The notes: generated from the letters alone by a model not told the origin. Numbered from the stretch's first letter, positions 2,908-60,564 are shown. The stretch: 64,000 nucleotides of DNA from a virus (IMGVR_UViG_3300020153_000001:32001-96000), one strand, 5' to 3'. Translations and numbers: made by a program.

Positions 2908-2927
2908 TTTTGACTCCGGAGTCAAAA
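2908..2927. repeat. 20-bp palindrome TTTTGACTCCGGAGTCAAAA, copy 1
   Basis: Exact; extends to 26 bp (2905-2930); supplies the TGA stop of 2922..4319. Confidence 0.98.
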
Positions 2928-4319
2928 TTGCATGGAAACGGCCGCGGCAGCCATTTTCTTGAAATCGGGACTATCTATGTGGTTTGACAACACCGCTAAC
3001 TGATACATTGCATACTCGCACGCTAGCACCGGGCCTAGGGCAGCGTCTGCTTTATCGGCCAGCCTAACGTAGCCTAGACTGCTGGCACTCTTAACAGAAA
3101 GGTCAAAAGGTTTAATAGAGTAGCACAAGAGCGAGCTATCTAGCGATCCGGCGCATTTTGTCATTTCGCGTTGGACGTACGGATTACTTTCCAAGACGGA
3201 GACAACGTCAGCTTGTCGTGACAGCTTGGTAAATACACCCGGCAGATGATCTGTAAAGTCAGGAGCGCCTAACAAATCAGCCCAAACTTTAGGGGGTAGT
3301 AATATACCCAATCGGCCGGCCGCCGATAGCTGCTCGTATTTGTCGGCATCTTTTATAAAAACGCGATTTCCGCTACTCGCTACGCGGGAGATGTCGGCTA
3401 GTCTCCTTGCATAACTTTCGTCAAATGCCGCTGTTTTCTCAACTTCAGCTAACGTGACTAACGCTTTATACTGCTTCTTAACGGCTGACGACGGAAGAGC
3501 GTCAATATACCAGACAGGAAGCGCTAGTTTTATCCGCTCGGCAAGCTCTGCCCCAGAGATAACACGGCCAGAAGCTTCTGCCTGCTTAGTAAGCTCTCCA
3601 TATACGGCAATCGAATACGCTATTCTGTCGGCGGGACGAAGAACATGGGAGATATCGAACCACTCGCAGATGGGGTTTACGGCACATAGGGTATGGCCGT
3701 CGTCAAACGTTTTGCCTATGTTGTTCTTTAGCCCGCCGTACTTAACACATCGATCAGGCCCGCAGTACTCAAGCCTATTCCTGGCTTTGTTGCCGCAACC
3801 AGAACATACGTCGTACGGCACCCTGGTCGCCATGCTTACGGGTATATCCTCCCCTTTTGACAGAAGCTCTATTTCATCGTCGGCGACCAGTCCCTTATTA
3901 CGCTCTGCGGCTTCTTTAGTGCCGTTCAGGTATACTAAGAGCTCTATTCTTCCAGCAGGCTTATTGTAATATGACGCTTTTACAATGCCATAGCTACGTC
4001 TAGGGTCTTTATTGATGTGAGACCTGTAAAAGTAAGCAAACTTAGTGAATGTGGGATGGTCTCGTTCACAAGTCTCTGAAGGAAAATAGTCGCCGTTTTT
4101 ATTTGGACCGAAGTGTTCTCCGTCTCCAAGCGCTATAACATGGATAGGGACTTCGCCCTTCTTAGGCGGCGACTTTTGTAGCACATCTACAAAATACGCA
4201 GCCGCACGCTTTAGCAGCTGCTTCTTATCCTCCCCAACCAGCCCACGAGAAGCCACTTTAATAGCATATGTGACTGGCTCGTCAAAGGACTGGCTATTTG
4301 GAGGAACAACCTTGAGCAT
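2922..4319 (-). CDS. Putative prohead maturation protease-like protein
   Basis: GPNKNGDYF, H-x-NKD, RIELL, VSMATRVPYDVCSGCGN, FDISHV..PAD motifs fit HK97/herpes-type protease relatives with a Cys-rich insert; sits upstream of scaffold and capsid. Confidence 0.55.
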   Translation of the reverse strand: MLKVVPPNSQSFDEPVTYAIKVASRGLVGEDKKQLLKRAAAYFVDVLQKSPPKKGEVPIHVIALGDGEHFGPNKNGDYFPSETCERDHPTFTKFAYFYRSHINKDPRRSYGIVKASYYNKPAGRIELLVYLNGTKEAAERNKGLVADDEIELLSKGEDIPVSMATRVPYDVCSGCGNKARNRLEYCGPDRCVKYGGLKNNIGKTFDDGHTLCAVNPICEWFDISHVLRPADRIAYSIAVYGELTKQAEASGRVISGAELAERIKLALPVWYIDALPSSAVKKQYKALVTLAEVEKTAAFDESYARRLADISRVASSGNRVFIKDADKYEQLSAAGRLGILLPPKVWADLLGAPDFTDHLPGVFTKLSRQADVVSVLESNPYVQREMTKCAGSLDSSLLCYSIKPFDLSVKSASSLGYVRLADKADAALGPVLACEYAMYQLAVLSNHIDSPDFKKMAAAAVSMQF

Positions 4320-4473
4320 TTGTGGCTGCTAAAAGCTGACAGTTTGTTAAAGTAATATAGAACTACTCTAATTTTTGACTGCAATTAATAAGCGTGTAAC
4401 AAAACATAACACGCTAACATACAAGTTAGCACATAATCTGAGCGGAGCAGTTATCTACCGCGACATCAATTAA

Positions 4474-5526
4474 TTAATACTCTCTTCTCAAGTCGAAGAC
4501 GTCAGCCACAGCTCTGCCTAATCCATAGCCGGCAAGACCGCCAACAAGACCACGTGCGCCGCTGCGGCCTAAAGCTTTCTTATTCTTAACTGCGCTTTGC
4601 GCGAGTCCTTTCAAAGCCGCCAAACCACCTCCGGCACGCTGGACGCCGGCTTGATATAGACCCTTAGCGGCTCCGGGCACACGCTTCACAAGCGCGCCTA
4701 GCTGCTTAGCGTAGTCTTTAGCGAGTTCGGGCGAGCGCTTCACAAGCGCGCCTAGCTGCTTAGCGTAGTCTTTAGCGATTTCGGGCGATCGCTTCGCAAG
4801 CGCAGCTAAGTGTCTAGCGTAGTCCTTCGCGATTTCGGGCGAGCGCTTCGCAAAATCGCCTAAGCGCTTAATATATTCCTTTGCGGCTTCGGGCGCGTGT
4901 TTCGCAAGTTCACCTATGTGCCTCGCATATTCCTTTGCAATTTCGGGCGAACGCTTCGCAATGTCCCCTAAGACCTTAATATATTGCTTTGCGATTCCAG
5001 GCGTACGCATCAAAAAGTCGGGCACACCCATAGCTTTAACCAGATCTTTCGCTTTCCCAACCGCTCCGGGAAATGCTCCAATACCTGCGCCTGTAGCCGC
5101 AGAAAGCCCGATGAGCCCTTTTCCAAATGGCGTATAACCGCTCTCACCTTTCTCCAACGATCTGAGTGCCTCCTCGATTTGCTTAATAGTATCAGGCGAT
5201 AGGGCCCCGGCGGCGCCGCCTCCTGCGCCCGCTGCACTTAGCGCACCTAATGCGCCTCCACCTCCTCCCCCGCCTCCCCCGGCCTTACCGCCGAATATAG
5301 ATGTAATACCGCTGGCTCCCAGGCCGGCTCCCGCAACGGCCCCCAAAACGGTCAGCAGTGCCGATGTTTTCTTATCAAACCCCAACAGTTGGCTTAAAAT
5401 GAGCGCTGTCATTCCGAGCCCTGCGCCCGGTATAACAATATCCCATACATCAGCAGCCTCTTTCACATAATCATCGTCAAGGGGAATCCTAGAAGCTATA
5501 TTTGCGACGTGATAAATATCATGCAT
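4474..5526 (-). CDS. Glycine-zipper membrane protein with 18-aa repeats
   Basis: GxxxG hydrophobic helices at both ends; about 7 AKRSPEIAKDYARHLAAL-type repeats. Confidence 0.6.
   Translation of the reverse strand: MHDIYHVANIASRIPLDDDYVKEAADVWDIVIPGAGLGMTALILSQLLGFDKKTSALLTVLGAVAGAGLGASGITSIFGGKAGGGGGGGGGALGALSAAGAGGGAAGALSPDTIKQIEEALRSLEKGESGYTPFGKGLIGLSAATGAGIGAFPGAVGKAKDLVKAMGVPDFLMRTPGIAKQYIKVLGDIAKRSPEIAKEYARHIGELAKHAPEAAKEYIKRLGDFAKRSPEIAKDYARHLAALAKRSPEIAKDYAKQLGALVKRSPELAKDYAKQLGALVKRVPGAAKGLYQAGVQRAGGGLAALKGLAQSAVKNKKALGRSGARGLVGGLAGYGLGRAVADVFDLRREY
4660..5010 (-). repeat. Coding 54-bp (18-aa) tandem repeat
   Basis: Seen in translation and in DNA (gcgcctagctgcttagcgtagtc recurs at 54-bp spacing); boundaries approximate. 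Confidence 0.8.
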
Positions 5527-5605
5527 TATTTTGTCTCCTCTGCCATCAAAGATCGGTCTTTATGCCGTCAACAAGTAATATTATACCACAAACAACGTTA
5601 AAAGA

Positions 5606-6785: not shown

Positions 6786-8132
6786 CTAGACCAATGATTC
6801 TTCTTTGCCTCTTTCTGGTTCAGCTAAATTAAACATACCGGACGACATTCCAGTAGCGATCCGATCTAGCTCTCTGTTGAGAGATACAAGCGAGTTCGTA
6901 TGGAATGTGTCTAGAACGCCGCCAGATTGCAACGCGATACGCAGATACATACGGATGAGGTTAGGTTGCTGCATGGCTCTGGGAGCCAGTCGGCTTAGCG
7001 CGTTATATACCTTCACAATTTCATCGGAAGGATACTTGCTTATAACAGGGTCATTTGCCATCAAGTAAATAAGATAGCTTTTGACCTTAAGCGACGCAGC
7101 TTCGATATTCATTGAAACGTCTTTCGGCTTTACTACTGACGGCTGTGTCTTTCCGAAAATTTCGCCAACAGACTGACCGAAGCTAGAGATAGAGCCCACA
7201 TCAGGGAACATGGAAGACTTGGCCTCTTTCCTAAAGTCGAGCTCTGGGAAAATGGTTTGCCACCGCTCGGGCTCAAGCTCTGGGAAGATGGTTCCGTAGA
7301 TAGGCCTTCTCAGGTCGGCAATATCAAGTTTCTTCTTCGGCGGAGATGCGAAATTGGCAAGCTTTTCTGCCTTAACGGCCTCTAAATACTCGTTGCAGCA
7401 GTCAACAGCCTGTTTAATAAGCGAATATGGAGGTCGTTTGGCGTCGAATATCGGGTCGTTCGAGTAAATAGGAGGATGTTTTAGATTGGCCACGTCAAGC
7501 GCCAGCTTGACGATGGTCTCTCCCTCTTTACCAAATACAGCTACAGCGTTTTGCTTGACAACGTCGGGGTGGACAGAACCGTGACAAGAAAAATACTGTG
7601 CAAGTGCGTCAATAGCATTAGCAAAGCGCCGTTCTGATGCTAGCTTAGCAATTCCGGCTTCTTTCCTTGCTTGGTCAGCCACAAACGGCGTTACGTCTTT
7701 TCTATTAGGCTTTGGTCTGTCTAACGAAGCTAGTTTAATGCTAGCAGACCCTGTTTTAATGGTTGTGGGTCTTATAACGCTACTAACCGGAAGCTTCCAG
7801 TCAGAAGATACCGCTGCAGACTCGTTATAGGAAGGTTGACTAGCAGTCTTTATTGATGTATTTCGGCTAAATACGGCTTTTACGACGTCTTCTGCGTTTA
7901 TAACGCGGGGTACTTCGGCGCGCTTGTCTAAATCTTCTAGTTGAGATAGAGAAGCGGCCGTATTATACGCGCGGACGACCATTCTTATTTGGTCTTTTGT
8001 AAGGTCATAAACCCTTGCGATTTTGACCGCGGCGGTCTGTGGCTCCTCCCCCATTTCTACTAGGTCAATAAGCTCGTTGGCCGCCTTCTTGATCTTCTCT
8101 TTTGTAGCCGGCGTTATGCGCTTAGCTGCCAT
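6786..8132 (-). CDS. Hypothetical, probable virion protein
   Basis: 448 aa; SD GGAG supplied by palindrome copy 2; several K-x-A-S motifs. Confidence 0.65.
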   Translation of the reverse strand: MAAKRITPATKEKIKKAANELIDLVEMGEEPQTAAVKIARVYDLTKDQIRMVVRAYNTAASLSQLEDLDKRAEVPRVINAEDVVKAVFSRNTSIKTASQPSYNESAAVSSDWKLPVSSVIRPTTIKTGSASIKLASLDRPKPNRKDVTPFVADQARKEAGIAKLASERRFANAIDALAQYFSCHGSVHPDVVKQNAVAVFGKEGETIVKLALDVANLKHPPIYSNDPIFDAKRPPYSLIKQAVDCCNEYLEAVKAEKLANFASPPKKKLDIADLRRPIYGTIFPELEPERWQTIFPELDFRKEAKSSMFPDVGSISSFGQSVGEIFGKTQPSVVKPKDVSMNIEAASLKVKSYLIYLMANDPVISKYPSDEIVKVYNALSRLAPRAMQQPNLIRMYLRIALQSGGVLDTFHTNSLVSLNRELDRIATGMSSGMFNLAEPERGKEESLV

Positions 8133-8904
8133 TTTTTGACTCCGGAGTCAAAATTTCAAAGTTCGGCACTAATTTGGCGCTTTCGAGAAGCTTCTTGTCA
8201 CCCCAGTTCCAACCCAGTCGGCTTATGCTGTCAGCCAGGACTTTATGCAGATTGTCGATTTCTGGTCTCTTCGCGTCATCTGACACGGCCGACAGGAACT
8301 TCTCGGCGTTTGTTTCGACAAGTCTATCGCTAAACGCTACCTTAACAGCTAGACGTCGCAGGGCAGTTTGCTTAAGGCATATCTTCCAGAAATCTTTACT
8401 CGAAACGCCGGACATTATCGAAGCATCATATATCACCTCGTCGATAACTTCCTTACCGCCGCAGAACGCAAAGAACTTCCATATAGCCTCCCTGGACGGC
8501 TTACCATCAATTACTTCTATAATGGGGTATATAAGCCGTTGGAATATGTAGCTGTGATTGTTCAACCTATCTCTTATATTATAAAACCAAGCTTCGTAAA
8601 ACCGCACGACGTCACTAGATGCGGATAGTCTGCTGGCTATATCGTTGTCAGACTGACCGGCTATAATCCTTGCCTCAATTTCCCACTTCACCGAAGCCAA
8701 CACTTCTTTGGAGTAAATGCTCTCAGCCGTACGCTGCTCAGAAGTTTGCTTGCCGCGCATGTAATCTATAGCTAAAAGCACATAATCATCGTTATCGTCG
8801 GTACGCGGCAATTCTGAATTGTCCTTGAGCGTTTGCGCACGGCGCCATCGCCAGTCCGGTGGTCGCCATATATCGGACTTGGTAAATTCGTGCTCTGATT
8901 TCAT
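8122..8904 (-). CDS. Hypothetical protein with possible helix-turn-helix segment
   Basis: IEARIIAGQSDNDIASRLSASSDVVRFY is HTH-like; C-terminus ILTPESKNGS is encoded by the palindrome. Confidence 0.55.
   Translation of the reverse strand: MKSEHEFTKSDIWRPPDWRWRRAQTLKDNSELPRTDDNDDYVLLAIDYMRGKQTSEQRTAESIYSKEVLASVKWEIEARIIAGQSDNDIASRLSASSDVVRFYEAWFYNIRDRLNNHSYIFQRLIYPIIEVIDGKPSREAIWKFFAFCGGKEVIDEVIYDASIMSGVSSKDFWKICLKQTALRRLAVKVAFSDRLVETNAEKFLSAVSDDAKRPEIDNLHKVLADSISRLGWNWGDKKLLESAKLVPNFEILTPESKNGS
8134..8153. repeat. 20-bp palindrome, copy 2
   Basis: Exact; codes LTPESK and gives SD 7 nt before ATG 8132. Confidence 0.98.
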
Positions 8905-16544: not shown

Positions 16545-16564
16545 TTTTGACTCCGGAGTCAAAA
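16545..16564. repeat. 20-bp palindrome, copy 3
   Basis: Exact; supplies both the TGA stop of the beta'-C gene and the SD of the next gene. Confidence 0.98.
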
Positions 16565-18412
16565 TTGCCTGGCCTGTTCGACAACACCCTTAGCCCATTG
16601 CTGAAGGGGTATACCTATTGCTTTAGCAGGAACAAAGCTTGTGCCGTAAATATCAGCCATAGAACCCTGTCTTACCGCCGATAGCAGCGCGCGTACCTGG
16701 TTCGAGCCAAACAGTCTGGTCATCCAGTTAGGATCAAATTCAAGCGTAGAAGCCGCACGGACCATGTATGGTTCAAACGGCGGCGGCTCGCTATGAACAA
16801 CGATGTCTTTTATACCAGCTTCCCTTAGCTCTTTAACGACAGACTGTTTGATCTTCGTACCTATGGTATAGTGCAACACGGGAACCTCTAAGTAATAGCC
16901 TATAGCGCTATCGACGGGCACCCTCATACTACCACGACGGGGCTTCCATCGCTTTACTATTTCGCCATACGGCACAATTTCGTCTAAATAAAACCCCCCA
17001 AACGGCTGGGTTATAACAACATGGTCGATAAGCCCACGTGCTAACAGCTCGACGTTTCGTCTATGTACCGGCTGACCAGCATCTCGCATGGCGTCGCAAA
17101 ACATCTTAACAAACGCGCGTCGACCTTCGCCTATTCCTTTTTGTCTCACTACCTCGGCAGGGTTAGGTAGCCCCTCCGTAATCATGTCACCGGCTTCTAC
17201 AGTATCGCCTTCTTTCACTATAGGAGGATGGCTAGGCGGCGAAAGATGCTCCACGTCGCCAACAACGATTTTCCATTGGCCGATCTCGTTTCTTGTGATG
17301 GACCGAACTTTACCATCAACCTGACTGTGTATTGCCCCGCCCACAAACGTCTTTGGGACGTTTAGCATCTGTTCGAGTACCTTAAAACCACTAAACTTCG
17401 TCACACCGCCCGTGTGCTTTGAGCTTATAGATGTTTGCGTTATTCGCTCTCCTATGGCCTGCGCCGCGGAAAGACCAGGTATGCTACCGATTTCAGGAAG
17501 TCGACCGTGTTCGCGTATACCAGCATCGACAGCATAGACGCCGTCAACTGCCGGGCTAGCAATAGGACTACGAACAACGATCTTTTTAATGCCGTCTTTC
17601 TTGAGGTCTTCGTATACCGCCGGAGTAATCTCTGTACCGGCTGGCCATCTTCCTGCAGGAAGGGCTAAGAATGCGCCGATATTGTCGGGGTCGTCTGCAT
17701 TTACCGGCAACCCTAACGGGTAAGGTAGCTTAGCCTTATGATCATGGCCTATGACAACTAATCTATGAGCCGCTCTGTTTAGAAGTTTTGAAAGATAACC
17801 GCTTCTGGCGACGCCCAGCTTAGAATCTGCTAGTCCCTTTCTTGCTCCGTAGCAAGCAGCCCAGAACTCTGCTGTCGGTACACCAGCTGAATAGCTAGAA
17901 AGGACAGGGAATGGTACAACTTCGCCAGCCCTGTCGAAATACGCCGTATCGCCCATAATAAGCCGCTTAAGCATTGCAGGATTGCCTCTGGCGCCGGAAT
18001 AGACGTGTTCATAGAATCGGTTATTCCGCGCCTTGGCCTCATCCATCGTCAATTGAAGCAGCGTTTGCGAATGGGCAAATATAGCTTCAGATATCTTTTT
18101 GCGCTTCTCGTCGTCTGGCAGATCGCTTCCCGCAATACGCTCAATATCTTTTAAGATGGCTGGACGGTAGGAATAAGAAGATGGGAGGGGCTTTAAGTCT
18201 TCAAGGGAAAAAGATGCGCCGTCGCTGGCTAGTAGCGCCTGGACCGCGAGCTGGTTAAGCCGCCTTGTAATTTGCCCGTACTTATCAGGATACTTCTTAG
18301 CAAGTTCGGCGTAGAAGCTATTTACAGACTTCTTCGTGAACTCCTCGGGCAGACTAAGGTCAGAAGGGAGAACTTCCGAGAGTAAAAGGCGGCCTACCGT
18401 AACCTGATTCAT
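16559..18412 (-). CDS. rpoC: RNA polymerase beta' subunit, C-terminal part
   Basis: TVGRLL, SGARGN, bridge helix GARKGLADSKLGVARSGYLSKLL, trigger loop AAQAIGERITQTSISSKHTGG. Confidence 0.92.
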   Translation of the reverse strand: MNQVTVGRLLLSEVLPSDLSLPEEFTKKSVNSFYAELAKKYPDKYGQITRRLNQLAVQALLASDGASFSLEDLKPLPSSYSYRPAILKDIERIAGSDLPDDEKRKKISEAIFAHSQTLLQLTMDEAKARNNRFYEHVYSGARGNPAMLKRLIMGDTAYFDRAGEVVPFPVLSSYSAGVPTAEFWAACYGARKGLADSKLGVARSGYLSKLLNRAAHRLVVIGHDHKAKLPYPLGLPVNADDPDNIGAFLALPAGRWPAGTEITPAVYEDLKKDGIKKIVVRSPIASPAVDGVYAVDAGIREHGRLPEIGSIPGLSAAQAIGERITQTSISSKHTGGVTKFSGFKVLEQMLNVPKTFVGGAIHSQVDGKVRSITRNEIGQWKIVVGDVEHLSPPSHPPIVKEGDTVEAGDMITEGLPNPAEVVRQKGIGEGRRAFVKMFCDAMRDAGQPVHRRNVELLARGLIDHVVITQPFGGFYLDEIVPYGEIVKRWKPRRGSMRVPVDSAIGYYLEVPVLHYTIGTKIKQSVVKELREAGIKDIVVHSEPPPFEPYMVRAASTLEFDPNWMTRLFGSNQVRALLSAVRQGSMADIYGTSFVPAKAIGIPLQQWAKGVVEQARQF

Positions 18413-22883: not shown

Positions 22884-22903
22884 TTTTGACTCCGGAGTCA
22901 AAA
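22884..22903. repeat. 20-bp palindrome, copy 4
   Basis: Exact; intergenic between zincin paralogs. Confidence 0.98.
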
Positions 22904-41479: not shown

Positions 41480-41530
41480 TTCGACTCCTTTCTAAAAAGG
41501 GAAAGAAAAATATGGCCTGATACAAAAAAG

Positions 41531-45430: not shown

Positions 45431-47312
45431 GTGTTTTTGACTCCGGAGTCAAAAACCGATGGCTAACGAGGCAGTTCTTATTCACGAGCTGTTTTAATAC
45501 CCGCAGCCCGATACTTCTCCCCGTGTGTGGGTGAGCTGCCAGCTTAGTAATCTGGTCTTTATGTATTCTATAACGTACTAACACGTCAGGAATATTGTAT
45601 AATTTACGACCACTCATATAAGCACGAAGCCATAAGTCTAGGTCGATACAACAACTTAAACGCTCGTCATATCCCCCTAAACTGGTTATACTCTTCTTCC
45701 TGTACATTACGCCTGGGTTATTAATGAACCAAGGCCGGTTCCATAAAACGTATTTCGCTAGCTCATAATAAGAAGGTATGGGCGTACTAGCATGATTTGT
45801 TACGTGCAGTATTCTACCTGTGTCATCGTCGAATGCTTCTAGCTGGCATCCGCAAATATCAATATCTGGGTTCGACTTCATTGCGGACACCATCCTTGCC
45901 AGCCACGTTGGGTACGCAATATCGTCGCTATCAAAACAGGCTACGAGCTCGTGTTTCGCCTCTTTAAGCCCTACATTTCTAGCAGCGCTAGCCCCTCTGT
46001 GGTCGGGTAGTACTATTAGCCTTACCCTGCTATCGGACTTGGCTATATCGTGTAGCTTGTTCTTTGTTGATTCGTTTGACGACCCATCGTCAACCAATAT
46101 GAGCTCCCAACTGGGCCACGTCTGCGAAGATATTGACTGGTAGCATTCCTCTAGATATTTGGGTTTCGTGTTATACACAGGAACGACTATAGATACCGGC
46201 GTTTCGGTCGCAGTGAACGGCACATCTGGCGGCAAGGTGCCGTTGTAGACAGCTTGTAGATATTCGGCCCAGCGACGGCCGACTTCGTCCATATTATAGT
46301 TTGCCCTTATCACTTCTCTAGCGCGTAAGATATTTGCTTTATTGCTTTCGCTAGTAGCTTCTAGGATTGCAGTAGCTAGCGTCTTACCGTCGCGCGTCGG
46401 CCGAATGGTTACAGAAAATTTGCCATACTTAGACTCAAAATATGGTACGCCACCAACTGGCGTAGCAACTGTCGGTATTCCCGCAGCCCACGCTTCCAGC
46501 AACGCCAAGCTGCAGCCTTCGCAACGGCTTACAAGGACAAAGCAGTCAACGGCAGATAAAATGTCGCCGACTTGTGCGCATTTTTCTACAAAACGGGCAC
46601 GAGGGCATATAGAACGAATATAGTTAACCTCTTTTTCTTCCGCCGGCCCCACAAACACAGGGATGTATCTGTCACCTAGAACGTTGGCTGCGTTTGCGAC
46701 CACGTCGACTATCTTGCAACCGTCATCGACAACCCTACCAACGTAACCTATCACAACGTCATCATCCGACACCTTCCAACGATTTCTTATTTCTTGTCTA
46801 CCTAGGATGGTATTGCATCGATCCAGGTCAACGCCATTAATAATGACAGTTGTAGCTTCCGGCTTTGGTAAAATCGCAGATGCGGCTGGAGATACAGCCA
46901 CCCATCTATCCACAAGCGGCGCTACAGCAGCCGATAGTCTCCTTATATAATCGCTGCTGCTGTTCGAGACAAAAACGCTTATGCTGTTTTCACATTTATT
47001 AGGCGAAAAACAGCCTCTATACACCACGATCTTATTACTCGCGAAATTCCATATATCCGGCCTGTATAGTTGGACCGATCCCAAGAGAAGAGCTTCTTCG
47101 ACAACCAACGGATTATTAAGCGAACTAAGAAACGCAATGCCGAGATAATTAAACACCTTACTGTCCAACGACTTTGCCAGATTGACAGCGGATCTTGAGT
47201 TGCCGCCGAAAGACAAATGATTTACGACAATCCCAACAGGTATTCTATTGGGATATAGCTCAGACATTAGTCTGGTCCTAATTTCATGCGAAACCTTAAT
47301 GTCAGGAAACAT
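45399..47312 (-). CDS. Two-domain glycosyltransferase (GT4 + GT2)
   Basis: EGCSLALLEAWAAGIP; VSIVVPVYN...VDDGS...FDSDD. Confidence 0.9.
   Translation of the reverse strand: MFPDIKVSHEIRTRLMSELYPNRIPVGIVVNHLSFGGNSRSAVNLAKSLDSKVFNYLGIAFLSSLNNPLVVEEALLLGSVQLYRPDIWNFASNKIVVYRGCFSPNKCENSISVFVSNSSSDYIRRLSAAVAPLVDRWVAVSPAASAILPKPEATTVIINGVDLDRCNTILGRQEIRNRWKVSDDDVVIGYVGRVVDDGCKIVDVVANAANVLGDRYIPVFVGPAEEKEVNYIRSICPRARFVEKCAQVGDILSAVDCFVLVSRCEGCSLALLEAWAAGIPTVATPVGGVPYFESKYGKFSVTIRPTRDGKTLATAILEATSESNKANILRAREVIRANYNMDEVGRRWAEYLQAVYNGTLPPDVPFTATETPVSIVVPVYNTKPKYLEECYQSISSQTWPSWELILVDDGSSNESTKNKLHDIAKSDSRVRLIVLPDHRGASAARNVGLKEAKHELVACFDSDDIAYPTWLARMVSAMKSNPDIDICGCQLEAFDDDTGRILHVTNHASTPIPSYYELAKYVLWNRPWFINNPGVMYRKKSITSLGGYDERLSCCIDLDLWLRAYMSGRKLYNIPDVLVRYRIHKDQITKLAAHPHTGRSIGLRVLKQLVNKNCLVSHRFLTPESKTHEADSRLRNI
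45435..45454. repeat. 20-bp palindrome, copy 14
   Basis: Exact, extends to 24 bp; codes LTPESK; GGAG lies 10 nt before ATG 45430. Confidence 0.98.
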
Positions 47313-49125
47313 TTGCTAAGCTCTTGAGACACGACGAAAATTCTCTTTTCAGGATAGCAGATCGATAGGCCATGTCTGGACTGGCTGTAAGCTGTTCTTT
47401 ACCATGTTTTCGGTAGTTAACTAATATGTCTGGTATGTTGGTTATTTTCAGTCCTGCCTTAAACGCACGTAACCACAGATCTAAATCCTCGCAATATAGC
47501 GAGTTTTCGTTGTAACCCCCGATTTTCACTATTTTACTTCTTCTAAATATAACGCCAGGATTGTTGATGAGCCACAACCCTCCCGTATCTGCACGTGGCT
47601 TTATGCATTCATACGTAATTGCTTCTGGATGCTGCGTCGTATAGATTGTCTTACCGGTGGTGTCGTCAAATAAGCGTAACTGACACCCGCATATGTCAAT
47701 ATCGGGATTTGCCTTCATTGCAGCAACCATTCTTGCCAACCACTTTTGATCGGCAACATCGTCGCTATCCATGTTAGCCACAAGATCGTACTTCGCTACA
47801 TTAATTGCAACGTTACGGGCAGTAGCAACACCGCAGCGCACTGGAAGTCGCACGAGTCTTACTCTAGAGTCCTTGGCAATTTCTTGCAGCTTTTCCGTAG
47901 TGCACGTCTGAGTAGACCCGTCATCTACGATCACAAGTTCCCAGTGTTTCCATGTCTGAGCCTTTATAGAATCCCAATATTCCTGCAAATATTCAGGTTT
48001 TGTGTTGTAAACTGGAGTCATTATGGAAACGTAAGTCTCTGACGGCGTAAATGGCTTATCGGCAGGAGCTTCGCCAGTATGAATAGCGCATAAATATTCT
48101 GTCCATCTACGTCCAAACTCGTGGATATTGTAGTTTGCCAGTATAATATCTTTTGCCCGTCTTCGGCTTTCTTTATCTACCATCACCTTCAATACTGCAC
48201 GGGCAAGCTCGTCTGCAGAGCACGCGGAAACGTCGACTGTAGGGCTGCCATATTTGGCCCTGCAATAGGATACGACACCCACATCCGACGAAACCGTTGG
48301 TACGCCAGCCGCCCAGGCCTCCATAATAGCTAGACCGCACCCTTCTGATAGGCTTGGAAGTACGAAGCAATCCATCGCAGCAAGCGCATCACCCACATGA
48401 ATCGATGACGACACTATCTTGCTGGAAGGACAAACGGCATATATCTTTTCGACTGTCAACTTGTTATAAATTTCGCCTACAAAGACAGGCACAAAACGCT
48501 TACCAAGCATCCGCGCAACTTCTGCTAAGAGTTCTGGCTTTTTGCTCCTGTCGTTTGCTATCCTGCCTAAGTAGCCTAATACGATCTGGTCTTCGCTTAC
48601 TTTCCAGCGTCGTCTAATTTCGTCGCGTCCAATTATAGGCAAGCATCTGTTTATATCGACACCATTTAGGATTATCGTTACTGCACTATGGTTTGGCAAA
48701 GCGCTTGCCGCCGCAGGCGATACGGCAGCCCAATATTTAACATATGGAATCAACGCATTGTGGCATGGTATTCCGGCGCCATGACCGACATATAAGACGT
48801 TACCGTCGTTATATAACAGAGGTAGCAGAGGAACTAACGGGCTACAATTTGCCACTATAGTGATTATGTTTTTGTAGCTTGACCATCGTGTAACGTCGCC
48901 ATAGTTCACAAGTTTTGTAAATCGTTGTACTTCATCAACTAGCTCGATACAATGTCCGTCGTAGTAACCTAGCGCTACGCCAAGAAAATCTATCTTATTC
49001 CGATCTACGGATTTAAGTAGATCGGCTATCCACCTTTCGTAGCCGCCCATAAACATCGCGTAGGCGCTAATTCCAACAACAGCTTTTCCTTTGTCGATTT
49101 GTACTTGGCTATGCGCTGCATTCAT
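47302..49125 (-). CDS. Two-domain glycosyltransferase (GT4 + GT2), paralog
   Basis: GGYERW; EGCGLAIMEAWAAGVP; PVYNT...VDDGS...MDSDD. Confidence 0.9.
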   Translation of the reverse strand: MNAAHSQVQIDKGKAVVGISAYAMFMGGYERWIADLLKSVDRNKIDFLGVALGYYDGHCIELVDEVQRFTKLVNYGDVTRWSSYKNIITIVANCSPLVPLLPLLYNDGNVLYVGHGAGIPCHNALIPYVKYWAAVSPAAASALPNHSAVTIILNGVDINRCLPIIGRDEIRRRWKVSEDQIVLGYLGRIANDRSKKPELLAEVARMLGKRFVPVFVGEIYNKLTVEKIYAVCPSSKIVSSSIHVGDALAAMDCFVLPSLSEGCGLAIMEAWAAGVPTVSSDVGVVSYCRAKYGSPTVDVSACSADELARAVLKVMVDKESRRRAKDIILANYNIHEFGRRWTEYLCAIHTGEAPADKPFTPSETYVSIMTPVYNTKPEYLQEYWDSIKAQTWKHWELVIVDDGSTQTCTTEKLQEIAKDSRVRLVRLPVRCGVATARNVAINVAKYDLVANMDSDDVADQKWLARMVAAMKANPDIDICGCQLRLFDDTTGKTIYTTQHPEAITYECIKPRADTGGLWLINNPGVIFRRSKIVKIGGYNENSLYCEDLDLWLRAFKAGLKITNIPDILVNYRKHGKEQLTASPDMAYRSAILKREFSSCLKSLANVS

Positions 49126-52557: not shown

Positions 52558-53946
52558 CTATTGCGCGTTCACTTGTAATAAAGGTTTCGTACCATCTTGA
52601 ACGTACTCGACGACGGAAATAAATTGCATGTCCGGCGCTACATTAGCAGGTAGTATAATCGCAGTAGCGCATCTATAGAAAAATCTAACCATTACTTCGG
52701 CTGGATTTATTGTGCTAAGGTCTTCATAGTATTCGGACAAAAGGTTGTATAACATAACATCCAACGTTCTCTCTCGCTCGCGTACTCGATCCCAAAACAG
52801 AGTCACATCGTTAGAGCTACCTTCTAATGGCCAGCTAATCTCATAGCCACGCGCAGTTTCGACTATTGTTGTTTGAACAGTGTTGTTTACGGCGTATATA
52901 GTGTTCGATGGTCCTGATACGATAATCGAATCCTTTTCTAGGTGCCGTTGCGACACATCTTCTAGCTCTCTAACAGATGCGTTTTCGGCTGTACGCTCCG
53001 CACTCACCAGTGTCAATATACCATCGGGATATATCGGTATCTTTGGAACATATGAAGGCACGACGCCGTCGTGAAAGTCTATAACATTGAAGCCTTCCAC
53101 GAGCGGCGTCCATTTTGTGAGCTTGTCGTTTTCTGAAACAGCAAGTTCAAACGATGACGATACAAAATATTCCATTTTATCTGTTTTAACAAGATTACCA
53201 CCTGTAACCGGGGTAATGTCCAAAACTATTTCCGATTCGGCAACAGAGATGGGGATCTCATAGTATAAAGCTGCTAAACCCCTAAGCCTCGCTGGCGTTA
53301 GTCCTTTGGCTAGCGCCTCCACCATCAGCAGCGTAAAGAGTAAACGATCGTAGTAGTCGTCGACGCATTTGTTGTTGACATCAATGAGGTATGTGAAGAA
53401 TCTATCTAGTAAGGATGAGTTCAGAAGCGTAGCATTCTTTAGCCACAAAACATAAAAGTACCGCTGCCCGCCGCCATAGTAACCATAAAAGGACGCTCGC
53501 GGATCGCTAAGAAAGTACAAGTAGTCGCCGTCTATATAGAACTCATCATCCCATGTAATAGTTGGATCGAACGGCTTATTTACAATAGCTTCTATGCTGA
53601 ATATATGCGACGGCAACGGTACCCGATACTGTCCACTTACAGCCTGAATATCGTCATCGCTGATAATTAATGGAATGTGCTTGTATTTAACGACCGGAGA
53701 GAATTTGTCGAGTATCGAGCTAAGATCGTAAGAGAAGTCGCTTATTATTAGCTCGTAAATCTTATAGTGCGACTTAAATACAGCATCTACCAAGGACTCA
53801 TGTCCTGGCATCGCGGCCGTGAAGCTGTCCCTTATAGCCAAAAAGCTGTCCAAAGGGATGGATACATCTATAGATGGTATATCAATCGGTCTGTATATAG
53901 CGCTTATCGACCTGGATGTAGCCGTACCATCTCGCCAGGTAATCAT
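52558..53946 (-). CDS. Putative baseplate component
   Basis: Follows the baseplate J-like gene; start moved to ATG 53946 (SD from palindrome). Confidence 0.45.
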   Translation of the reverse strand: MITWRDGTATSRSISAIYRPIDIPSIDVSIPLDSFLAIRDSFTAAMPGHESLVDAVFKSHYKIYELIISDFSYDLSSILDKFSPVVKYKHIPLIISDDDIQAVSGQYRVPLPSHIFSIEAIVNKPFDPTITWDDEFYIDGDYLYFLSDPRASFYGYYGGGQRYFYVLWLKNATLLNSSLLDRFFTYLIDVNNKCVDDYYDRLLFTLLMVEALAKGLTPARLRGLAALYYEIPISVAESEIVLDITPVTGGNLVKTDKMEYFVSSSFELAVSENDKLTKWTPLVEGFNVIDFHDGVVPSYVPKIPIYPDGILTLVSAERTAENASVRELEDVSQRHLEKDSIIVSGPSNTIYAVNNTVQTTIVETARGYEISWPLEGSSNDVTLFWDRVRERERTLDVMLYNLLSEYYEDLSTINPAEVMVRFFYRCATAIILPANVAPDMQFISVVEYVQDGTKPLLQVNAQ

Positions 53947-53966
53947 TTTTGACTCCGGAGTCAAAA
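53947..53966. repeat. 20-bp palindrome, copy 15
   Basis: Exact; fills the whole gap between stop 53967 and ATG 53946. Confidence 0.98.
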
Positions 53967-55574
53967 TTATGAAACCAGGATAGACACGTTCTGGGGATAT
54001 TGAACTAGTGCTGTGTTCTTTCCAGAAACGCCATAAGCAGATAATGTAGGCACACAAAGGCTGCTAGAAAATCCGATTGTGTAATAAGTAAGATTAGGTA
54101 GCAGGATAGATCCCCCAAATGTGGTATTTGTTATATAAACTCCAGACGGTAGTAATGAATTAACTGCATCAGCTAGGTCGGCGCCGTAAACGCATTCTTC
54201 AAACATGAGCGAGTTGATAAACTCGCTTGCTTTTGCCTTTATCGCATTTGCTATTTCATCCGACACGGTTTTTGTTAAATAAATTCTCGTATTAACGTGG
54301 CAAATGAATGGCGCTTTTACCAGTATGTCTAGCCCGACAGGCCTAATCTCGTCACAAGATAGGTATTTTTGCGCGCTATCGACAGCGGGCATATGATAAA
54401 TAGTAGCATAATAATCTTGCGTTCTTGTTCCGACCTCTTCCGGTAATACTTCAGTATCGGTGTCGACGAATTCAACTGTTATTTTATGAAACGGCGAAAA
54501 AACACCCTCTGCGATACTTGCTATATCCGGAACGAATGGAAAACCTGTAGGGTTTAGATCAAGGCTAGCTGTTTGCAATGTTATTTCGTATCCCTCGTCG
54601 GTAGGCAGCGACGTAATAGATCTTACTTTTGTGACTAAGTACGATACAGGACACAAGCCCCTCCCAACTGTAAACGACCAGATACCATCATTATTAGAGT
54701 TAATCCCTATCAATGTAGCTGTTACGCGTTTTGTTGTGTAAATAGGTGTTCGCAGAGTTCTTACATAGATATCAATCTTGCCGCCTATAGAAACGGGCAA
54801 TATACCGCGACGGTCTCGCTGCATTTCGGCGTCATTGGCGCCAATAACAGATACTGCAATAGTTCCGAGTAGATTGTTGTCATAGTATTTGTTCGTGGAG
54901 GCTGTTCTTAGTAGCGAAAGAACCTGTGTGTTGTTAGCTAGCCCCCTAATCCCAAGACCAGCCAATATCCTGTTTGCAGCTTCTTTGGCGGTTTCGGGAT
55001 CTGCGCCTCCGTAGAACGACGACGACAAGATCGCGTAAAGATTAGGTATTTCGAGCGTAGTCGAAAGCGGCGTGTTTTCTTGAATATTATAAACGGACCC
55101 GACGGACGTGGCCTTTAATGGCACATCAAACCCCCAATAAGGACCAACTCGTACTAATATCCGATCTTCCGGACTCAGTCTATATTCTTCAGAAGGAATA
55201 GCTCTTACAGTCTCTGTCGATTCGTACGACAGATTGCTGGTGGTAGTGAATATGGTACCGGCTGGTATCGTGATTACAGATGTCGAACTAACTAGTATTG
55301 TGGCCGAGCCTGTGGCGTAGAGACCGTCGCTAATAGAAACGCCCAGCCCTTGTAAGAACGATCTAGCAACATCCTCATCGACCAGTCCCGCTACTATATT
55401 CTGTAGACCGACCGATTTGAGTTTTCGCTCCACGTCGTCGGAGATATATCCATATATGGCTGTGGCGGGCTGAACAAGCAATCGATCTATAATGTTGTTC
55501 TGGAATGATATATCAGGAAACTGAGAAGAAAGGATGCCTAATAGGGTTTGCCGAATTGTTGTCACATCAGCCAT
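53967..55574 (-). CDS. Baseplate J-like wedge protein (contractile tail)
   Basis: ATGSATI..TIPAGT.FTT, ATSVGSVYNI, FYGGADPET, VSVIGANDAEMQRD. Confidence 0.8.
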   Translation of the reverse strand: MADVTTIRQTLLGILSSQFPDISFQNNIIDRLLVQPATAIYGYISDDVERKLKSVGLQNIVAGLVDEDVARSFLQGLGVSISDGLYATGSATILVSSTSVITIPAGTIFTTTSNLSYESTETVRAIPSEEYRLSPEDRILVRVGPYWGFDVPLKATSVGSVYNIQENTPLSTTLEIPNLYAILSSSFYGGADPETAKEAANRILAGLGIRGLANNTQVLSLLRTASTNKYYDNNLLGTIAVSVIGANDAEMQRDRRGILPVSIGGKIDIYVRTLRTPIYTTKRVTATLIGINSNNDGIWSFTVGRGLCPVSYLVTKVRSITSLPTDEGYEITLQTASLDLNPTGFPFVPDIASIAEGVFSPFHKITVEFVDTDTEVLPEEVGTRTQDYYATIYHMPAVDSAQKYLSCDEIRPVGLDILVKAPFICHVNTRIYLTKTVSDEIANAIKAKASEFINSLMFEECVYGADLADAVNSLLPSGVYITNTTFGGSILLPNLTYYTIGFSSSLCVPTLSAYGVSGKNTALVQYPQNVSILVS

Positions 55575-56031: not shown

Positions 56032-56390
56032 CTCGTAGATTCCCTTCCTTCTACCGCAAAGTCGTCGACTATAGTCTTGGTAAACATCGGCAGCCGCGTC
56101 GATAAATTGCTAGAAATAATAAACGCCCTGCTAGGCGTTAGGTTCCTCAATAAAAACGCCCTATACATCGCAAGACTGTAGGCAGACTTCAACTGAGCCG
56201 TTATCATCTTGCCATCGCTAGCGCGTCGTTCTTGTAACACCTCAGCCGGTGTTTTGCCAGAGGCTTGTTTAAAGACGTTATATGCGCTTTCTCCACCATC
56301 GTTTAAAGATATATCTTCAGGAACAAACCAATCACTAGCGCCGTTACTGACGCTAATCATTTCCGACCACATATCGAATATATCAGACAC
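56028..56390 (-). CDS. Hypothetical protein
   Basis: 120 aa, coupled on both sides. Confidence 0.55.
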   Translation of the reverse strand: MSDIFDMWSEMISVSNGASDWFVPEDISLNDGGESAYNVFKQASGKTPAEVLQERRASDGKMITAQLKSAYSLAMYRAFLLRNLTPSRAFIISSNLSTRLPMFTKTIVDDFAVEGRESTR

Positions 56391-57198
56391 TGTATTTTCC
56401 TTTCTGTAACTGATACCAATACTTGATCCGCTCTTCTATCTCGGCAATACGCTGACTAACCCTACCAGGGCTTAAGTGCAGCTTTTCTGCTATCTCTTTC
56501 TGCGGCGTTTTATTTCTGCCGTGAAGCCCGTAATAGAGCTCTATAATCGCCTTGTCAATTGGATCAGCATCTATGTAAGCTAGCTCAAGCAGCTGCGTAA
56601 AGGCATCCGTCGTGGCAAGCGGAGAAGTAGGGATTTCAGATATTCCCTCCGCCGTTTGTCTGACAGTAGTAGCTTCGGGTAGTGCCATCCTGCCCTTTTG
56701 TCGTATTTTCTTTATCCTTTCAATGGAAAGACCCGTGTAGTCCGCCAATTCTTCCGTATTTGGTAGCCTGCCCAGCGTCTGCACTAGCTCCTCTTCAGCG
56801 TTATTAAGCATAGTAATATCCATCGACACCTGCTCTGACTGCCGTATTATCTGTCTTGTCTGGCCGCCAAGTCGCTTCAGGCGTTGTAAATTTAGGAAAA
56901 CATGGTTAGTTAGGGGGCCTTTAGATGGATCGTAAGATTTAATAGCGTCTATGACTAGTTTTTTGGCCCTCGTCCGAAGACTGGGCGTGTCGGCTATATC
57001 GGCGGCGTAGTAGTGAATGGCATAGTCTAGTAGACTATTCATTTTATCGACCAAAGCCGTCATGGCATCCGGTGACTTTGTCTTAACCCAGCTTTCGTAC
57101 AGGGGAATATACTCTTCTTCCTTAAATTTGTATTTCGATCCTGCCTGACCTGTTTGCCTTCTTTCTAGAATAATATCTAATAGCGACCTTTCCAGCAT
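56383..57198 (-). CDS. Sigma-70-family sigma factor (FliA/WhiG-like)
   Basis: Region 2 AIKSYDPSKG..TNHV, region 3 LGRLPNTEELADYTGLSIERI, region 4 PQKEIAEKLHLSPGRVSQRI. Confidence 0.85.
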   Translation of the reverse strand: MLERSLLDIILERRQTGQAGSKYKFKEEEYIPLYESWVKTKSPDAMTALVDKMNSLLDYAIHYYAADIADTPSLRTRAKKLVIDAIKSYDPSKGPLTNHVFLNLQRLKRLGGQTRQIIRQSEQVSMDITMLNNAEEELVQTLGRLPNTEELADYTGLSIERIKKIRQKGRMALPEATTVRQTAEGISEIPTSPLATTDAFTQLLELAYIDADPIDKAIIELYYGLHGRNKTPQKEIAEKLHLSPGRVSQRIAEIEERIKYWYQLQKGKYSV

Positions 57199-57289: not shown

Positions 57290-57309
57290 TTTTGACTCCG
57301 GAGTCAAAA
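57290..57309. repeat. 20-bp palindrome, copy 16
   Basis: Exact; upstream of the sigma gene. Confidence 0.98.
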
Positions 57310-57334: not shown

Positions 57335-57376
57335 TAGCTAAAAAGAGAGAGCACCGGCCGAGGGGGCTCGGCCGGT
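57335..57376 (-). terminator. Intrinsic terminator after csx15
   Basis: ACCGGCCGAG/CTCGGCCGGT then GCTCTCTCTTTTTAGCTA. Confidence 0.8.
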
Positions 57377-57992: not shown

Positions 57993-58607
57993 TCATTGTG
58001 GCATATTTTGTGATCGTACTAGGTGCTTGCATAAAGCTCGCCTAAATATGGGCTTTGCAAGCCATCTTGCCTTAGCAAAGTCCCACCACGTAACGCATAC
58101 ACTGTCGGCGTAATCAGCATATTTCTCAAAGTCCATGTCCCATATTGGTAGCTCGCCCCTAGATGCCACAATTCGCTTTACTTCGTTTACTAAGGCGAGG
58201 TTGTCAGCAACTTTGACGCGTTTATCGTCGAGTATTGCTGGGTCCAAAAACGCGGCCTTGCTTATTACTTCTATTAGTTGACGTTCATATTTCTTATGGA
58301 CGTGCATTCCGGGTAGGCCTCTTATTGGACTGATTATATCTCCTATAAACGCTTCTGCCGCGTCGTGTATTAATGCGGCAATATGGATGTCCTTGTCCTG
58401 CGGCCATAGCTTCCTGGAAATGATGTGAGCGAGGACGCTGTGGCTCAAAACGCTAAAAAACTTTGTACAATGCCCCTGAAATCGGCAAATCTTGCTTAGA
58501 CTGCTTATGATTTCCTCCCAGTCTATATCGTGCGGAGTTAGCTTTCTTATATCTATGACCCTGCCTGAGGCTGTTTCAAACCTTCCACGGTGCTTATAAC
58601 GACTCAT
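57993..58607 (-). CDS. HD-domain phosphohydrolase (YfbR-like)
   Basis: SLSKICRFQGH, SVLSHS, ALIHDAAEAFIGDI. Confidence 0.85.
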   Translation of the reverse strand: MSRYKHRGRFETASGRVIDIRKLTPHDIDWEEIISSLSKICRFQGHCTKFFSVLSHSVLAHIISRKLWPQDKDIHIAALIHDAAEAFIGDIISPIRGLPGMHVHKKYERQLIEVISKAAFLDPAILDDKRVKVADNLALVNEVKRIVASRGELPIWDMDFEKYADYADSVCVTWWDFAKARWLAKPIFRRALCKHLVRSQNMPQ

Positions 58608-58661: not shown

Positions 58662-58681
58662 TTTTGACTCCGGAGTCAAAA
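58662..58681. repeat. 20-bp palindrome, copy 17
   Basis: Exact; 15 nt upstream of a - strand TATAAT (58641-58646) that precedes the HD gene. Confidence 0.98.
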
Positions 58682-58773: not shown

Positions 58774-58830
58774 TAGCTAAAAAAGAGACAGCCGGCCTAC
58801 CCGCAGTTTGTACAAACTACGGGTAGGCCG
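58774..58830 (-). terminator. Intrinsic terminator
   Basis: Near-perfect 38-nt inverted repeat (58793-58830) then GCTGTCTCTTTTTTAGCTA. Confidence 0.8.
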
Positions 58831-59569: not shown

Positions 59570-59604
59570 GGAGGCGGAGCAGTGTACCGCTCCGCCTCCT
59601 TTTT
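59570..59604 (+). terminator. Terminator-like hairpin, U-tract on + strand
   Basis: GGAGGCGGAGC/GCTCCGCCTCC followed by T5. Confidence 0.5.
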
Positions 59605-59679
59605 CTGCTGATTTCGCAATCAACAAATTTTAGGGCTTTCTCTATTTGGCTATTCTTTCAGCAGCGTCGAAAACCAACT

Positions 59680-60510
59680 CTATCGTTTGTCGGCCTCCTT
59701 GAATGTGCAAGCATAGCACTTGCTAAGCGTGTCTACTACAATGTCTTCGTCGAGCTCGTGCCCAAAATATGTGGCGCATCCTATCTGATCACTACCATCA
59801 TCGTCGACGATACAGACAACAACGTCATAGACACAACCGTTTAACGTGTCTTCCAGTGTTTTGTACAGCTTCTCCACAGTCGACTGGTCGTTCTGGTCTG
59901 TCACGTACTGGCAAATACGTTGCTTAAATTCCTCTATAGGCATATTACTGAGCGCTTTCGCAACGGTTTCATCAAAATCAAGGATATTAGATAGATTGAA
60001 GTTGCTAATACCGAAATCCAAATCCATTGCGTATCGAACAGTTTTCATATCCGGCAGAAATAACCCTGCCGGGCAAACAACGTCCCATTGTCGATCAATC
60101 TGACATCCGCCAATAGGGTATATATAGATACCGCTATGTATGTAGGCCTCAAATGGTATAAGTAGTGAGGCAAGGTATCTTGGCGCGTTGCTATCCTCGC
60201 GCAACGGTTCTTCGCATTTGTAGTACCGGTATAGTTTCCTTGCGAGCTCTTCGTCTTTTACCAAGTCTTTTAGAAAGAACAAAGGCACTACACCATAATG
60301 CTCAAGATATTCGTTACCAACGTAAGCTGGTTCGACGAAGGCAATCGTCAGATCGCCGTTGCCGGTTTCGATAACCCACAGCGCTGTATCGTCAATTTCA
60401 ACGATATCGTCGTATCTCAAATCTGCGTAACGAATTTTTTGCAGGTTTCGTGCTTTTAGCTGACGAAAGTCACGCACATCATTTAAACTAAGGCGTAATA
60501 CTTCGGGCAC
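59680..60510 (-). CDS. Hypothetical protein
   Basis: GTG start, AAGGAGG SD, 276 aa. Confidence 0.65.
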   Translation of the reverse strand: MPEVLRLSLNDVRDFRQLKARNLQKIRYADLRYDDIVEIDDTALWVIETGNGDLTIAFVEPAYVGNEYLEHYGVVPLFFLKDLVKDEELARKLYRYYKCEEPLREDSNAPRYLASLLIPFEAYIHSGIYIYPIGGCQIDRQWDVVCPAGLFLPDMKTVRYAMDLDFGISNFNLSNILDFDETVAKALSNMPIEEFKQRICQYVTDQNDQSTVEKLYKTLEDTLNGCVYDVVVCIVDDDGSDQIGCATYFGHELDEDIVVDTLSKCYACTFKEADKR

Positions 60511-60544
60511 GGTCCAGATCCTCCTTAAGGGTAGCGTTAATAAT

Positions 60545-60564
60545 TTTTGACTCCGGAGTCAAAA
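60545..60564. repeat. 20-bp palindrome, copy 18
   Basis: Exact; intergenic. Confidence 0.98.

Follow-up and report, generated by a model that had tools for sequence, protein, structure and literature searches.

The question raised by this locus is what a perfect 20-bp palindrome, TTTTGACTCCGGAGTCAAAA (written also TTGACTCCGGAGTCAA), does at the gene junctions of an uncultured phage whose source environment is a hot spring. The stretch studied, referred to here as the window, is 64,000 nucleotides long and corresponds to bases 32001-96000 of an IMG/VR virus record (IMGVR_UViG_3300020153_000001) that measures 135,539 bp, is rated 94% complete and is labelled G000. Comparison of this genome with its relatives suggests that the palindrome is a duplex-DNA site of a phage-encoded dimeric factor acting on transcription at cistron boundaries, a reading to which we assign a probability of about 0.45.

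Each of the 18 copies that an earlier note on this DNA had reported was recovered, 17 as exact matches and the one at 24743 with 19 of 20 positions matching. Beyond these, the window holds no match at up to three mismatches, and dinucleotide shuffles of the window gave a mean of 0.01 matches. The whole record carries 28 exact copies, two copies with one mismatch and one copy with two, at a density of about one site per 4.4 kb, and a further copy at genome position 3822 has a one-base deletion. After four variant copies, the mismatch spectrum of G000 is empty until chance level is reached at five to six mismatches. Purifying selection on the palindrome is very strong. The observation that it does not degenerate into a family of near-matches holds for the window, but the genome as a whole has its four variants, and the related phage G001 keeps decayed relics. 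Seven of the 31 copies are clustered in a 6-kb early regulatory region.

An assembly or linker artefact is excluded, because independently built Logan contigs span the copies and related phages carry versions of the site. These contigs derive from two DNA runs (hot-spring and sediment metagenomes, possibly including the source sample) and cross several copies unbroken (31001-35206 and 37437-41000). Apparent joints in the contig layout were considered as rearrangements and rejected, as they represent 20-24-nt contig ends aligning with other copies. Only this phage clade has the site. No other IMG/VR contig contains the exact 20-mer, and a search of 185,579 species genomes with an 18-mer found nine singletons only, which is the chance level, and no cellular genome with multiple copies. 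A host repeat, or a mimic of a clustered regularly interspaced short palindromic repeat (CRISPR), was rejected on the basis of these chance singletons, and no Rfam family matched at the sites.

Exact and mismatch scans of the whole genome and its relatives confirmed the network and revealed allelic versions of the site. G001 is a complete 144-kb phage, syntenic with G000 at 65-74% DNA identity and with an RNA polymerase (RNAP) that is 83% identical. It carries 38 copies of TTGATTCCGGAATCAA, mostly as part of a 28-bp palindrome that includes A5 and T5 flanks. A further phage is represented by two fragments, G002 with 13 copies and G003 with 7 copies of TTGAATCCGGATTCAA, and the metagenome contig L181 carries three copies of this version. 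The three versions differ at pair 7:14 of the 20-mer, which is C:G in G000, T:A in G001, and A:T in G002, G003 and L181. The change at this pair between lineages is always mirror-symmetric, with one base pair per genome. Within a genome, variants affect only the central two bases, the outermost ones, or one position in an arm.

For about 15 of the 31 sites in G000, a G001 site lies no more than 45 nt from the projected orthologous junction. Presence or absence of the site differs at some junctions of the two phages; decayed relics persist at the G001 junctions that lost it, and the G001 copy at 18600 is a half-converted hybrid. Recent insertion was rejected on the evidence of the orthologous junctions and relics. 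The relics and the hybrid fit sites that track a putative reader half-site by half-site. The sites are old, strongly selected and shifted symmetrically in concert between lineages, and because specificity was changed one half-site at a time, this points to a sequence-specific reader that co-evolves with them. The suggestion that a dimeric protein reads the whole dyad is thus supported by mirror-symmetric alleles at orthologous junctions, although the reader protein itself was not found.

A more distant phage, G004 (IMGVR_UViG_3300027839_000007; 39% RNAP identity), carries an unrelated junction palindrome of up to 20-22 bp with flanks. Its layout of stop, palindrome, Shine-Dalgarno sequence and ATG is as in the G000 clade. 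Near the polymerase gene of about 75 other loci of the RNAP clade, no repeated palindrome was found.

G004, positions 9849, 33219, 46168, 54199 and 82921: the five copies of TATTGGCGCCAATA.

As the earlier note had stated for the window, every copy lies at or across a gene boundary by our own calls of open reading frames (ORFs). The 18 window copies are placed as follows.

2908-2927: a TGA within the palindrome ends the minus-strand ORF 2922-4319; the following start lies some 53 nt downstream.
8134-8153: the upstream ORF 8122-8904 (minus strand) reads through in the LTPESK frame, and the ATG of 6786-8132 (minus) follows after 1 nt; the orthologous G001 junction has only a decayed relic, ACGAATCCGGAGTCAAAT.
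16545-16564: the RNAP beta'-C gene 16559-18412 (minus) stops at the internal TGA, and the ATG of a 1000-aa gene follows after 1 nt; G001 has a site at the orthologous junction.
22884-22903: intergenic, 17 nt before the ATG of 21235-22866 (minus).
24743-24762: the 19/20 copy, in which an outermost base differs, encodes the final residues (LTPESK, stop) of 24740-25816 (minus); the gene that comes next carries an AGGAGG ribosome-binding site of its own, and its ATG is 39 nt further on.
31185-31204: 2 nt past the stop of 31207-31608 (minus), ahead of the gene that precedes RNAP beta-beta'N; the orthologous junction of G001 carries a site as well.
33782-33801: between the early genes 33479-33754 and 33889-34968 (plus strand).
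34937-34956: within the 3' end of the glycosyltransferase gene 33889-34968 (plus), reading ILTPESKSAI and then stop.
35331-35350: at the 3' end of a doubtful ORF, 35081-35362 (plus), adjoining the end of a minus-strand non-coding RNA (ncRNA).
37130-37149: intergenic, between 36738-37106 (minus) and a tRNA-Thr pair.
37985-38004: intergenic, 28 nt upstream of a minus-strand promoter-like motif, GGCATTTAA.
39063-39082: between the divergent genes 38631-39029 (minus) and 39165-39554 (plus).
39561-39580: 6 nt past the stop of 39165-39554 (plus), with the ATG of the following plus-strand gene 20 nt further on; the orthologous G001 junction has no site.
45435-45454: the upstream ORF 45399-47312 (minus) reads through in the LTPESK frame, and the ATG of the glycosyltransferase gene 43745-45430 (minus) follows after 4 nt; G001 has a relic only.
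53947-53966: exactly fills the gap from the stop of the baseplate-J-like gene 53967-55574 (minus) to the ATG of 52558-53946 (minus); G001 has a site at the orthologous junction.
57290-57309: intergenic, downstream of a terminator hairpin with T-run and AGCTA, upstream of 56383-57198 (minus).
58662-58681: intergenic, 54 nt upstream of the ATG of 57993-58607 (minus).
60545-60564: intergenic, 34 nt upstream of the GTG of 59680-60510 (minus), which has its own AGGAGG ribosome-binding site.

Distances to stop and start codons were read in the sense of the flanking genes in three genomes, at 78 sites for stops and 73 for starts. The upstream stop codon falls at -6 to +7 nt of the palindrome at 29 of 78 sites, seven of which use the TGA of TTT-TGA, and fourteen upstream ORFs read through the palindrome. 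A start codon follows within 0-5 nt at 15 of 73 sites, and at about 20 further sites a ribosome-binding site and start follow 11-27 nt after it. Many copies have no start codon nearby. Where a gap is long, the site is found at its edges, beside stop or start codons, more often than expected from random placement. The 20-bp word, one of whose three frames is closed by a stop codon on either strand, is hard to accommodate within genes. One copy of G002, at 45268-45287 (L148:5268-5287), is nevertheless read in frame (ILNPDSK) inside a 774-aa ORF, where it occupies the linker from a KxDG nucleotidyltransferase/ligase-like domain to a membrane-spanning C-terminal part. The orthologues of this ORF in G000 and G001 have the palindrome directly before the gene start instead. 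A start association was not accepted for this in-gene copy, as the ATG that follows it replaces an Ile or Val of the orthologues and may be a plain substitution.

Recognition as DNA rather than RNA is favoured, at odds of roughly two in three, because the dyad symmetry continues unbroken through the centre, the RNA hairpin would be weak, and only one pair identity is used at 7:14 in each genome, although any Watson-Crick pair would preserve a stem. The centre is CCGG in G000 and GGCGCC in the unrelated palindrome of G004, and the hairpin is predicted at -3.4 to -5.7 kcal/mol at 37 °C and at about 0 at 55-70 °C. In the mechanism that we propose, a homodimeric, two-fold-symmetric and sequence-specific phage protein would read the palindrome on duplex DNA. 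Its sites would sit in short gaps at cistron boundaries, right after a stop and/or right before the next ribosome-binding site or ATG, and the bound factor would gate transcription along long polycistronic units. Gating could take the form of a roadblock or silencing of the stoperator or Cluster O type discussed below; alternatively, the factor could mark unit boundaries for the phage's own polymerase. The 52-kb middle region of G001 contains 18 sites and zero directional promoter-like motifs. We infer all three elements of this proposal, namely action on DNA, a dimeric phage reader and an effect on transcription.

Several points weigh against this proposal. Gene calls were made with our own ORF script and not with a trained gene finder. 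The phage looks virulent, because no integrase, ParB or obvious repressor was found, and lysogenic silencing as in the phage L5 is not directly transferable to it. Pfam and PHROG scans of about 55 proteins and six-frame family searches identified no reader protein, and no obvious repressor was recognised among the scanned proteins. The sole DNA-binding domain detected was a winged helix-turn-helix (HTH).

Genome 101379-101621, outside the window: winged HTH protein of 80 aa (HTH_24, E=4e-10).

The gene adjoins a metallophosphoesterase-like gene, with which it forms a module at genome 101379-102546 on the minus strand (L152:5379-6546). The orthologous protein of G001 shares only 45% identity and has a different recognition helix, and the gene is missing from the G002 fragment. 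A word-seeded homologue search returned only the protein itself. A profile search found a family of 80-95-aa homologues, and the contigs that carry them (L269-L273) have no repeated palindrome. The winged HTH is a candidate reader only, as its absence from the G002 fragment and the lack of palindromes on the homologue contigs leave the link unsupported. The same two-gene module was seen on one of these contigs (L270), which is unrelated and siphovirus-like, where a Metallophos protein is followed by an 84-aa winged-HTH homologue. Six-frame searches of G000, G001 and G002 were negative for Y1_Tnp, N6_N4_Mtase, ParB_N, Sigma70_r2, Phage_integrase and RHH_1, and gave weak or lineage-restricted matches only for HTH_3, HTH_17 and Resolvase.

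The remaining counterpoints favour a different level of action. A transcribed palindrome would form a short hairpin at cistron boundaries, serving either translation coupling, for which the GGAG centre in G000 can act as a masked Shine-Dalgarno sequence, or a cleavage or stability signal that might be read by a hairpin-specific RNA-binding protein or nuclease. We regard such an RNA-level element as unlikely, though it is the alternative that survives best. The closeness of the sites to stop and start codons, in the proportions given above, is a pointer to RNA or translation, and at least seven genuine ATGs of G000 have the central GGAG 6-10 nt ahead of them. Changes between lineages are compensatory. 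Variation within a genome is loop-like, affecting the two central and the outermost bases, and two single-arm variants are compatible with G.U pairing on the sense strand (2/2, not significant). ORFs that read through the palindrome use the frame L-(T/I/N)-P-(E/D)-S-K about 13 times versus twice for the other open frame. Moreover, the different palindrome of G004 has the same layout of stop, palindrome, Shine-Dalgarno sequence and ATG.

Against this, the hairpin is weak at 37 °C and would have hardly any stability at 55-70 °C, and the source is a hot spring. The centre reads GGAA or GGAT in G001 and G002, so that Shine-Dalgarno masking is not general. A constraint on structure alone would let copies drift to other pairs, yet the copies within a genome are identical. 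A self-complementary centre, which a loop does not need, is found in two independent palindrome families, and the many copies far from any start codon are difficult to accommodate. The RNA-processing stem, one of the options listed in the earlier note, belongs here; it survives with the low stability of the stem as its main weakness.

Two other recurrent signals are relevant to the reading of the palindrome as a polymerase signal. The strand-specific motif GGCA[AT]TTAA..GG occurs 8, 18 and 2 times in G000, G001 and G002, nearly always in the gene direction and often with a AAGATTTGNC element upstream. Duplicated ncRNAs and many short units of a hairpin plus T-run follow the motif, which is absent from more distant relatives and is regarded as promoter-like. 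Terminator-like hairpins followed by a T-run and a conserved AGCTA (TTTTTAGCTA) are likewise strand-specific and are common to all three genomes.

Window 35264, 36336, 37956, 38323 and 41904, and genome 11452, 19451, 100735 and 128708, minus strand: GGCA[AT]TTAA..GG.
Window 57335-57342, 58774-58781 and 37729-37736, minus strand: T-run with AGCTA.

The palindrome might be a core promoter or loading site for the fused beta-beta' RNAP of the phage, or for its specificity factor, giving leaderless or short-leader mRNAs. More broadly, it might be a symmetric loading, start or factor-dependent stop signal of this enzyme with a specificity that flips between lineages. Both versions seem distinctly improbable to us. 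The phage does encode a multisubunit RNAP, junction sites recur at the density stated, and a ribosome-binding site or ATG follows within 0-27 nt at about half of the sites. Several sites come right after terminator hairpins (genome 124366; G001 17813, 79497 and 127053), and long middle regions have no other recurrent motif, that of G001 having its 18 palindromes. However, a perfect palindrome is directionless, and no conserved asymmetric flank was found. Copies also lie directly before a terminator or at convergent 3' ends (genome 19458, 128713, 66937 and 67331), and the G002 orthologue of a capsid gene keeps its upstream terminator without the palindrome. The palindrome is unlikely to be the polymerase core promoter because the separate, promoter-like GGCA[AT]TTAA..GG motif stays constant between lineages while the palindrome changes. 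The RNAPs of G000 and G001 are highly similar, yet about 75 other loci of the RNAP clade have no repeated palindrome. Fixed phasing between the palindrome and the promoter-like motif was rejected: although spacings of 24-29 nt are found repeatedly, the distance is not kept at orthologous loci (4 versus 24 nt and 6 versus 67 nt). If true, punctuation by the RNAP would be a symmetric promoter/terminator grammar known for no multisubunit RNAP.

Other promoter and terminator types that were considered did not hold. A phage sigma-type promoter, as suggested earlier, is not supported, as neither a Sigma70_r2 domain nor a -10 element at the right spacing was found. With TTGAC taken as a -35 element of a sigma-70 promoter, no -10 hexamer was found 17 +/- 1 bp downstream in the flanks; the supposed -35 becomes TTGATT or TTGAAT in relatives, and ATGs occur 0-4 nt after the site. 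N4-type hairpin promoters, another option of the earlier note, have a 5-7-bp template-strand stem with a 3-nt loop and are few, directional and used by a virion single-subunit RNAP, whereas here a perfect dyad with an even centre is present in 31 copies in a phage with a multisubunit RNAP. An intrinsic terminator was rejected because the stem is AU-rich, the T-run precedes the stem in G000 with an A-run following it, and classical terminators occur separately.

A site for chromosome architecture or partition, similar to parS, matS or a packaging site, would be bound by a protein that compacts, organises or segregates the phage chromosome. It would have no direct role in expression, and placement at junctions would be mere avoidance of coding sequence. 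The sites are indeed evenly dispersed, exact and symmetric, and the word, with its stop codons, fits genes poorly. We consider this very doubtful. The ParB_N domain (PF02195) is absent from six-frame searches of G000, G001 and G002, in which control genomes were positive, and the palindrome resembles neither parS nor matS, as had been stated. The clustering in the early regulatory region and the excess of edge placement in long gaps also argue against mere avoidance of genes.

A selfish or mobile palindromic element that spreads by insertion or gene conversion, or a recombination boundary that marks module exchange, is highly improbable. Copies within a genome are identical, and some junctions differ in presence or absence. 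In G001, four pairs of sites are 55-61 bp apart (18600/18655, 109310/109366, 138329/138385 and 46346/46407), and three of the four spacers, each of about 35 nt, are partly alike (GTATTACGG ... TCGTAATAA); one pair has just one orthologous site in G000. However, half of the sites are orthologous across about 30% DNA divergence, and lost sites decay in place and leave no clean empty sites. No Y1 (RAYT-type) transposase or tyrosine recombinase was found in the three genomes, and a small serine recombinase is present in G001 only. Synteny breakpoints occur at 6 of 26 site junctions versus 35 of 116 others (p=0.63). The symmetric recombination site proposed earlier lacks support on the same grounds.

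Some further candidates can be dismissed briefly. A link to GANTC methylation or restriction was rejected because the N6/N4 methyltransferase PF01555 is absent and GANTC occurs outside the sites at 0.74-1.07 of expectation. TCCGGA, at 0.95-1.16 of expectation outside the sites, gives no support to a link with TCCGGA or CCGG methylation or restriction, as these words have their expected frequency there. CRP/FNR operators have the spacing TGTGA-N6-TCACA or TTGAT-N4-ATCAA. A site of this type was rejected, as the G001 palindrome is TTGAT-N6-ATCAA or TTTGA-N8-TCAAA and the half-site changes between lineages.

The phage itself has few recognisable genes. In the same scans of about 55 proteins, most others had no family match. 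The cellular-type RNAP is made as two proteins, a beta-beta'N fusion of 1452 aa and a beta'C protein of 617 aa. Its relatives are encoded at no fewer than 484 metagenome loci and therefore form a large uncharacterised phage clade. Four tRNA genes lie in the window. A reverse transcriptase is kept in G000, G001 (54%) and G002 (27%), and the palindrome copy at genome 99897 is directly upstream of its gene.

Window 25833-30191, minus strand: RNAP beta-beta'N fusion.
Window 16559-18412, minus strand: RNAP beta'C.
Window 41528-41890, minus strand: transfer-messenger RNA (Rfam 146 bits; ARAGORN tag peptide AEQPLAIAA).
Window 37325-37464, plus strand: adjacent tRNA-Thr pair (UGU, CGU).
Window 60686-60758 and 61902-61976, minus strand: tRNA-Arg (UCU) and tRNA-Ile (UAU).
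Genome 98714-99679, outside the window (L152:2714-3679), minus strand: reverse transcriptase (RVT_1, E=7e-18).
Window 42245-49125, minus strand: cluster of two radical-SAM genes and three large glycosyltransferase-domain genes.

The last cluster may be a glycan or nucleic-acid modification module. Certain words are also scarce: TTCGAA is wholly missing from G000 (0 versus about 32 expected) and depleted in G001 (23 versus 64), and AAGCTT is depleted in G002 (4 versus 17). The pattern resembles avoidance of restriction sites, with differences from lineage to lineage.

Several known systems resemble the palindrome network in part. Promoters of the T7 group are about 20 bp long, near-identical and present in about 15-20 copies at gene junctions, and co-evolve with the RNAP. 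Between related phages with polymerases of about 80% identity, their sequences change together. These promoters are asymmetric, directional and used by a single-subunit RNAP, whereas here a palindrome without an asymmetric flank coexists with a separate directional motif. Repetitive extragenic palindromic (REP) elements are short palindromes just after operon stop codons, are genome-specific, and co-evolve with a RAYT protein. They are imperfect, GC-rich and stable hairpins, unlike the weak hairpin here, and cellular genomes carry hundreds of them together with a Y1 transposase. A REP/RAYT system was rejected on this weakness, the absence of Y1_Tnp (PF01797), and the nine singleton matches among cellular genomes. 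The conserved inverted repeats of the Streptomyces phage phiC31, which are reportedly bound by its repressor, are alike in being palindromic operators that occupy many intergenic regions of one phage genome, mostly away from promoters. They differ in belonging to a temperate phage with a known repressor, in lower copy number and in an unrelated sequence.

The closest parallels are found among mycobacteriophages, and the claim of an undescribed site system is overstated, as dispersed near-invariant palindromes or operators have been described for Cluster O phages (PMC4351075) and as the stoperators of Cluster A phages (PMC6550527). Stoperators (L5, Bxb1) are up to about 30 near-identical sites in short intergenic spaces (PMC6550527, PMC9283540), and their motif tracks the divergence of the repressor (PMC6550527). 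They act genome-wide on transcription elongation. The palindrome network shares with them tens of near-identical sites in short gaps, here 31-32 in 135.5 kb and all at junctions, and a motif that varies between related phages, which in stoperators follows the reader. Unlike the perfect palindrome with its roughly symmetric flanks, stoperators are asymmetric 13-bp sites with an orientation bias. They are bound by a monomeric immunity repressor in a temperate phage, whereas no repressor, integrase or partition gene was found here.

Cluster O phages (Corndog and relatives) carry 34 invariant 17-bp dyad repeats, TGTTCGGNNNCCGAACA, of the form TGTTCGG-N3-CCGAACA with 7-bp arms and a variable odd spacer; dimeric regulatory proteins were proposed by the authors, with function unproven (PMC4351075). 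As in Cluster O, there are more than 30 copies with invariant half-sites, and most sites occupy short gaps between genes or the ends of genes. Relatives have positions in common, losses occur by point mutation, and the motif is absent from host genomes (Cluster O). The sequences are unrelated, and the present 16-20-bp palindrome is perfect through its centre, without a spacer. A third of the Cluster O sites lie inside genes, whereas here the sites touch gene ends only. The host and clade are different as well, this being a hot-spring phage with its own multisubunit RNAP. Function of such phage site networks is proven or mechanistically understood only for stoperators, and the network described here follows a pattern that Cluster O phages are already known to show and that has no explanation there; by itself it adds a further example. 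Combined with the phage's own multisubunit RNAP, it could help to tell whether such networks serve gating of transcription, organisation of DNA or action at the RNA level. It also differs from Cluster O in the allelic series between lineages. If the palindrome is the DNA site of a dimeric factor, this series offers three natural versions that differ at one mirrored pair at the same junctions, which would make the reader protein easy to fish out and its specificity testable by cross-binding, and this is the most useful aspect of the system.

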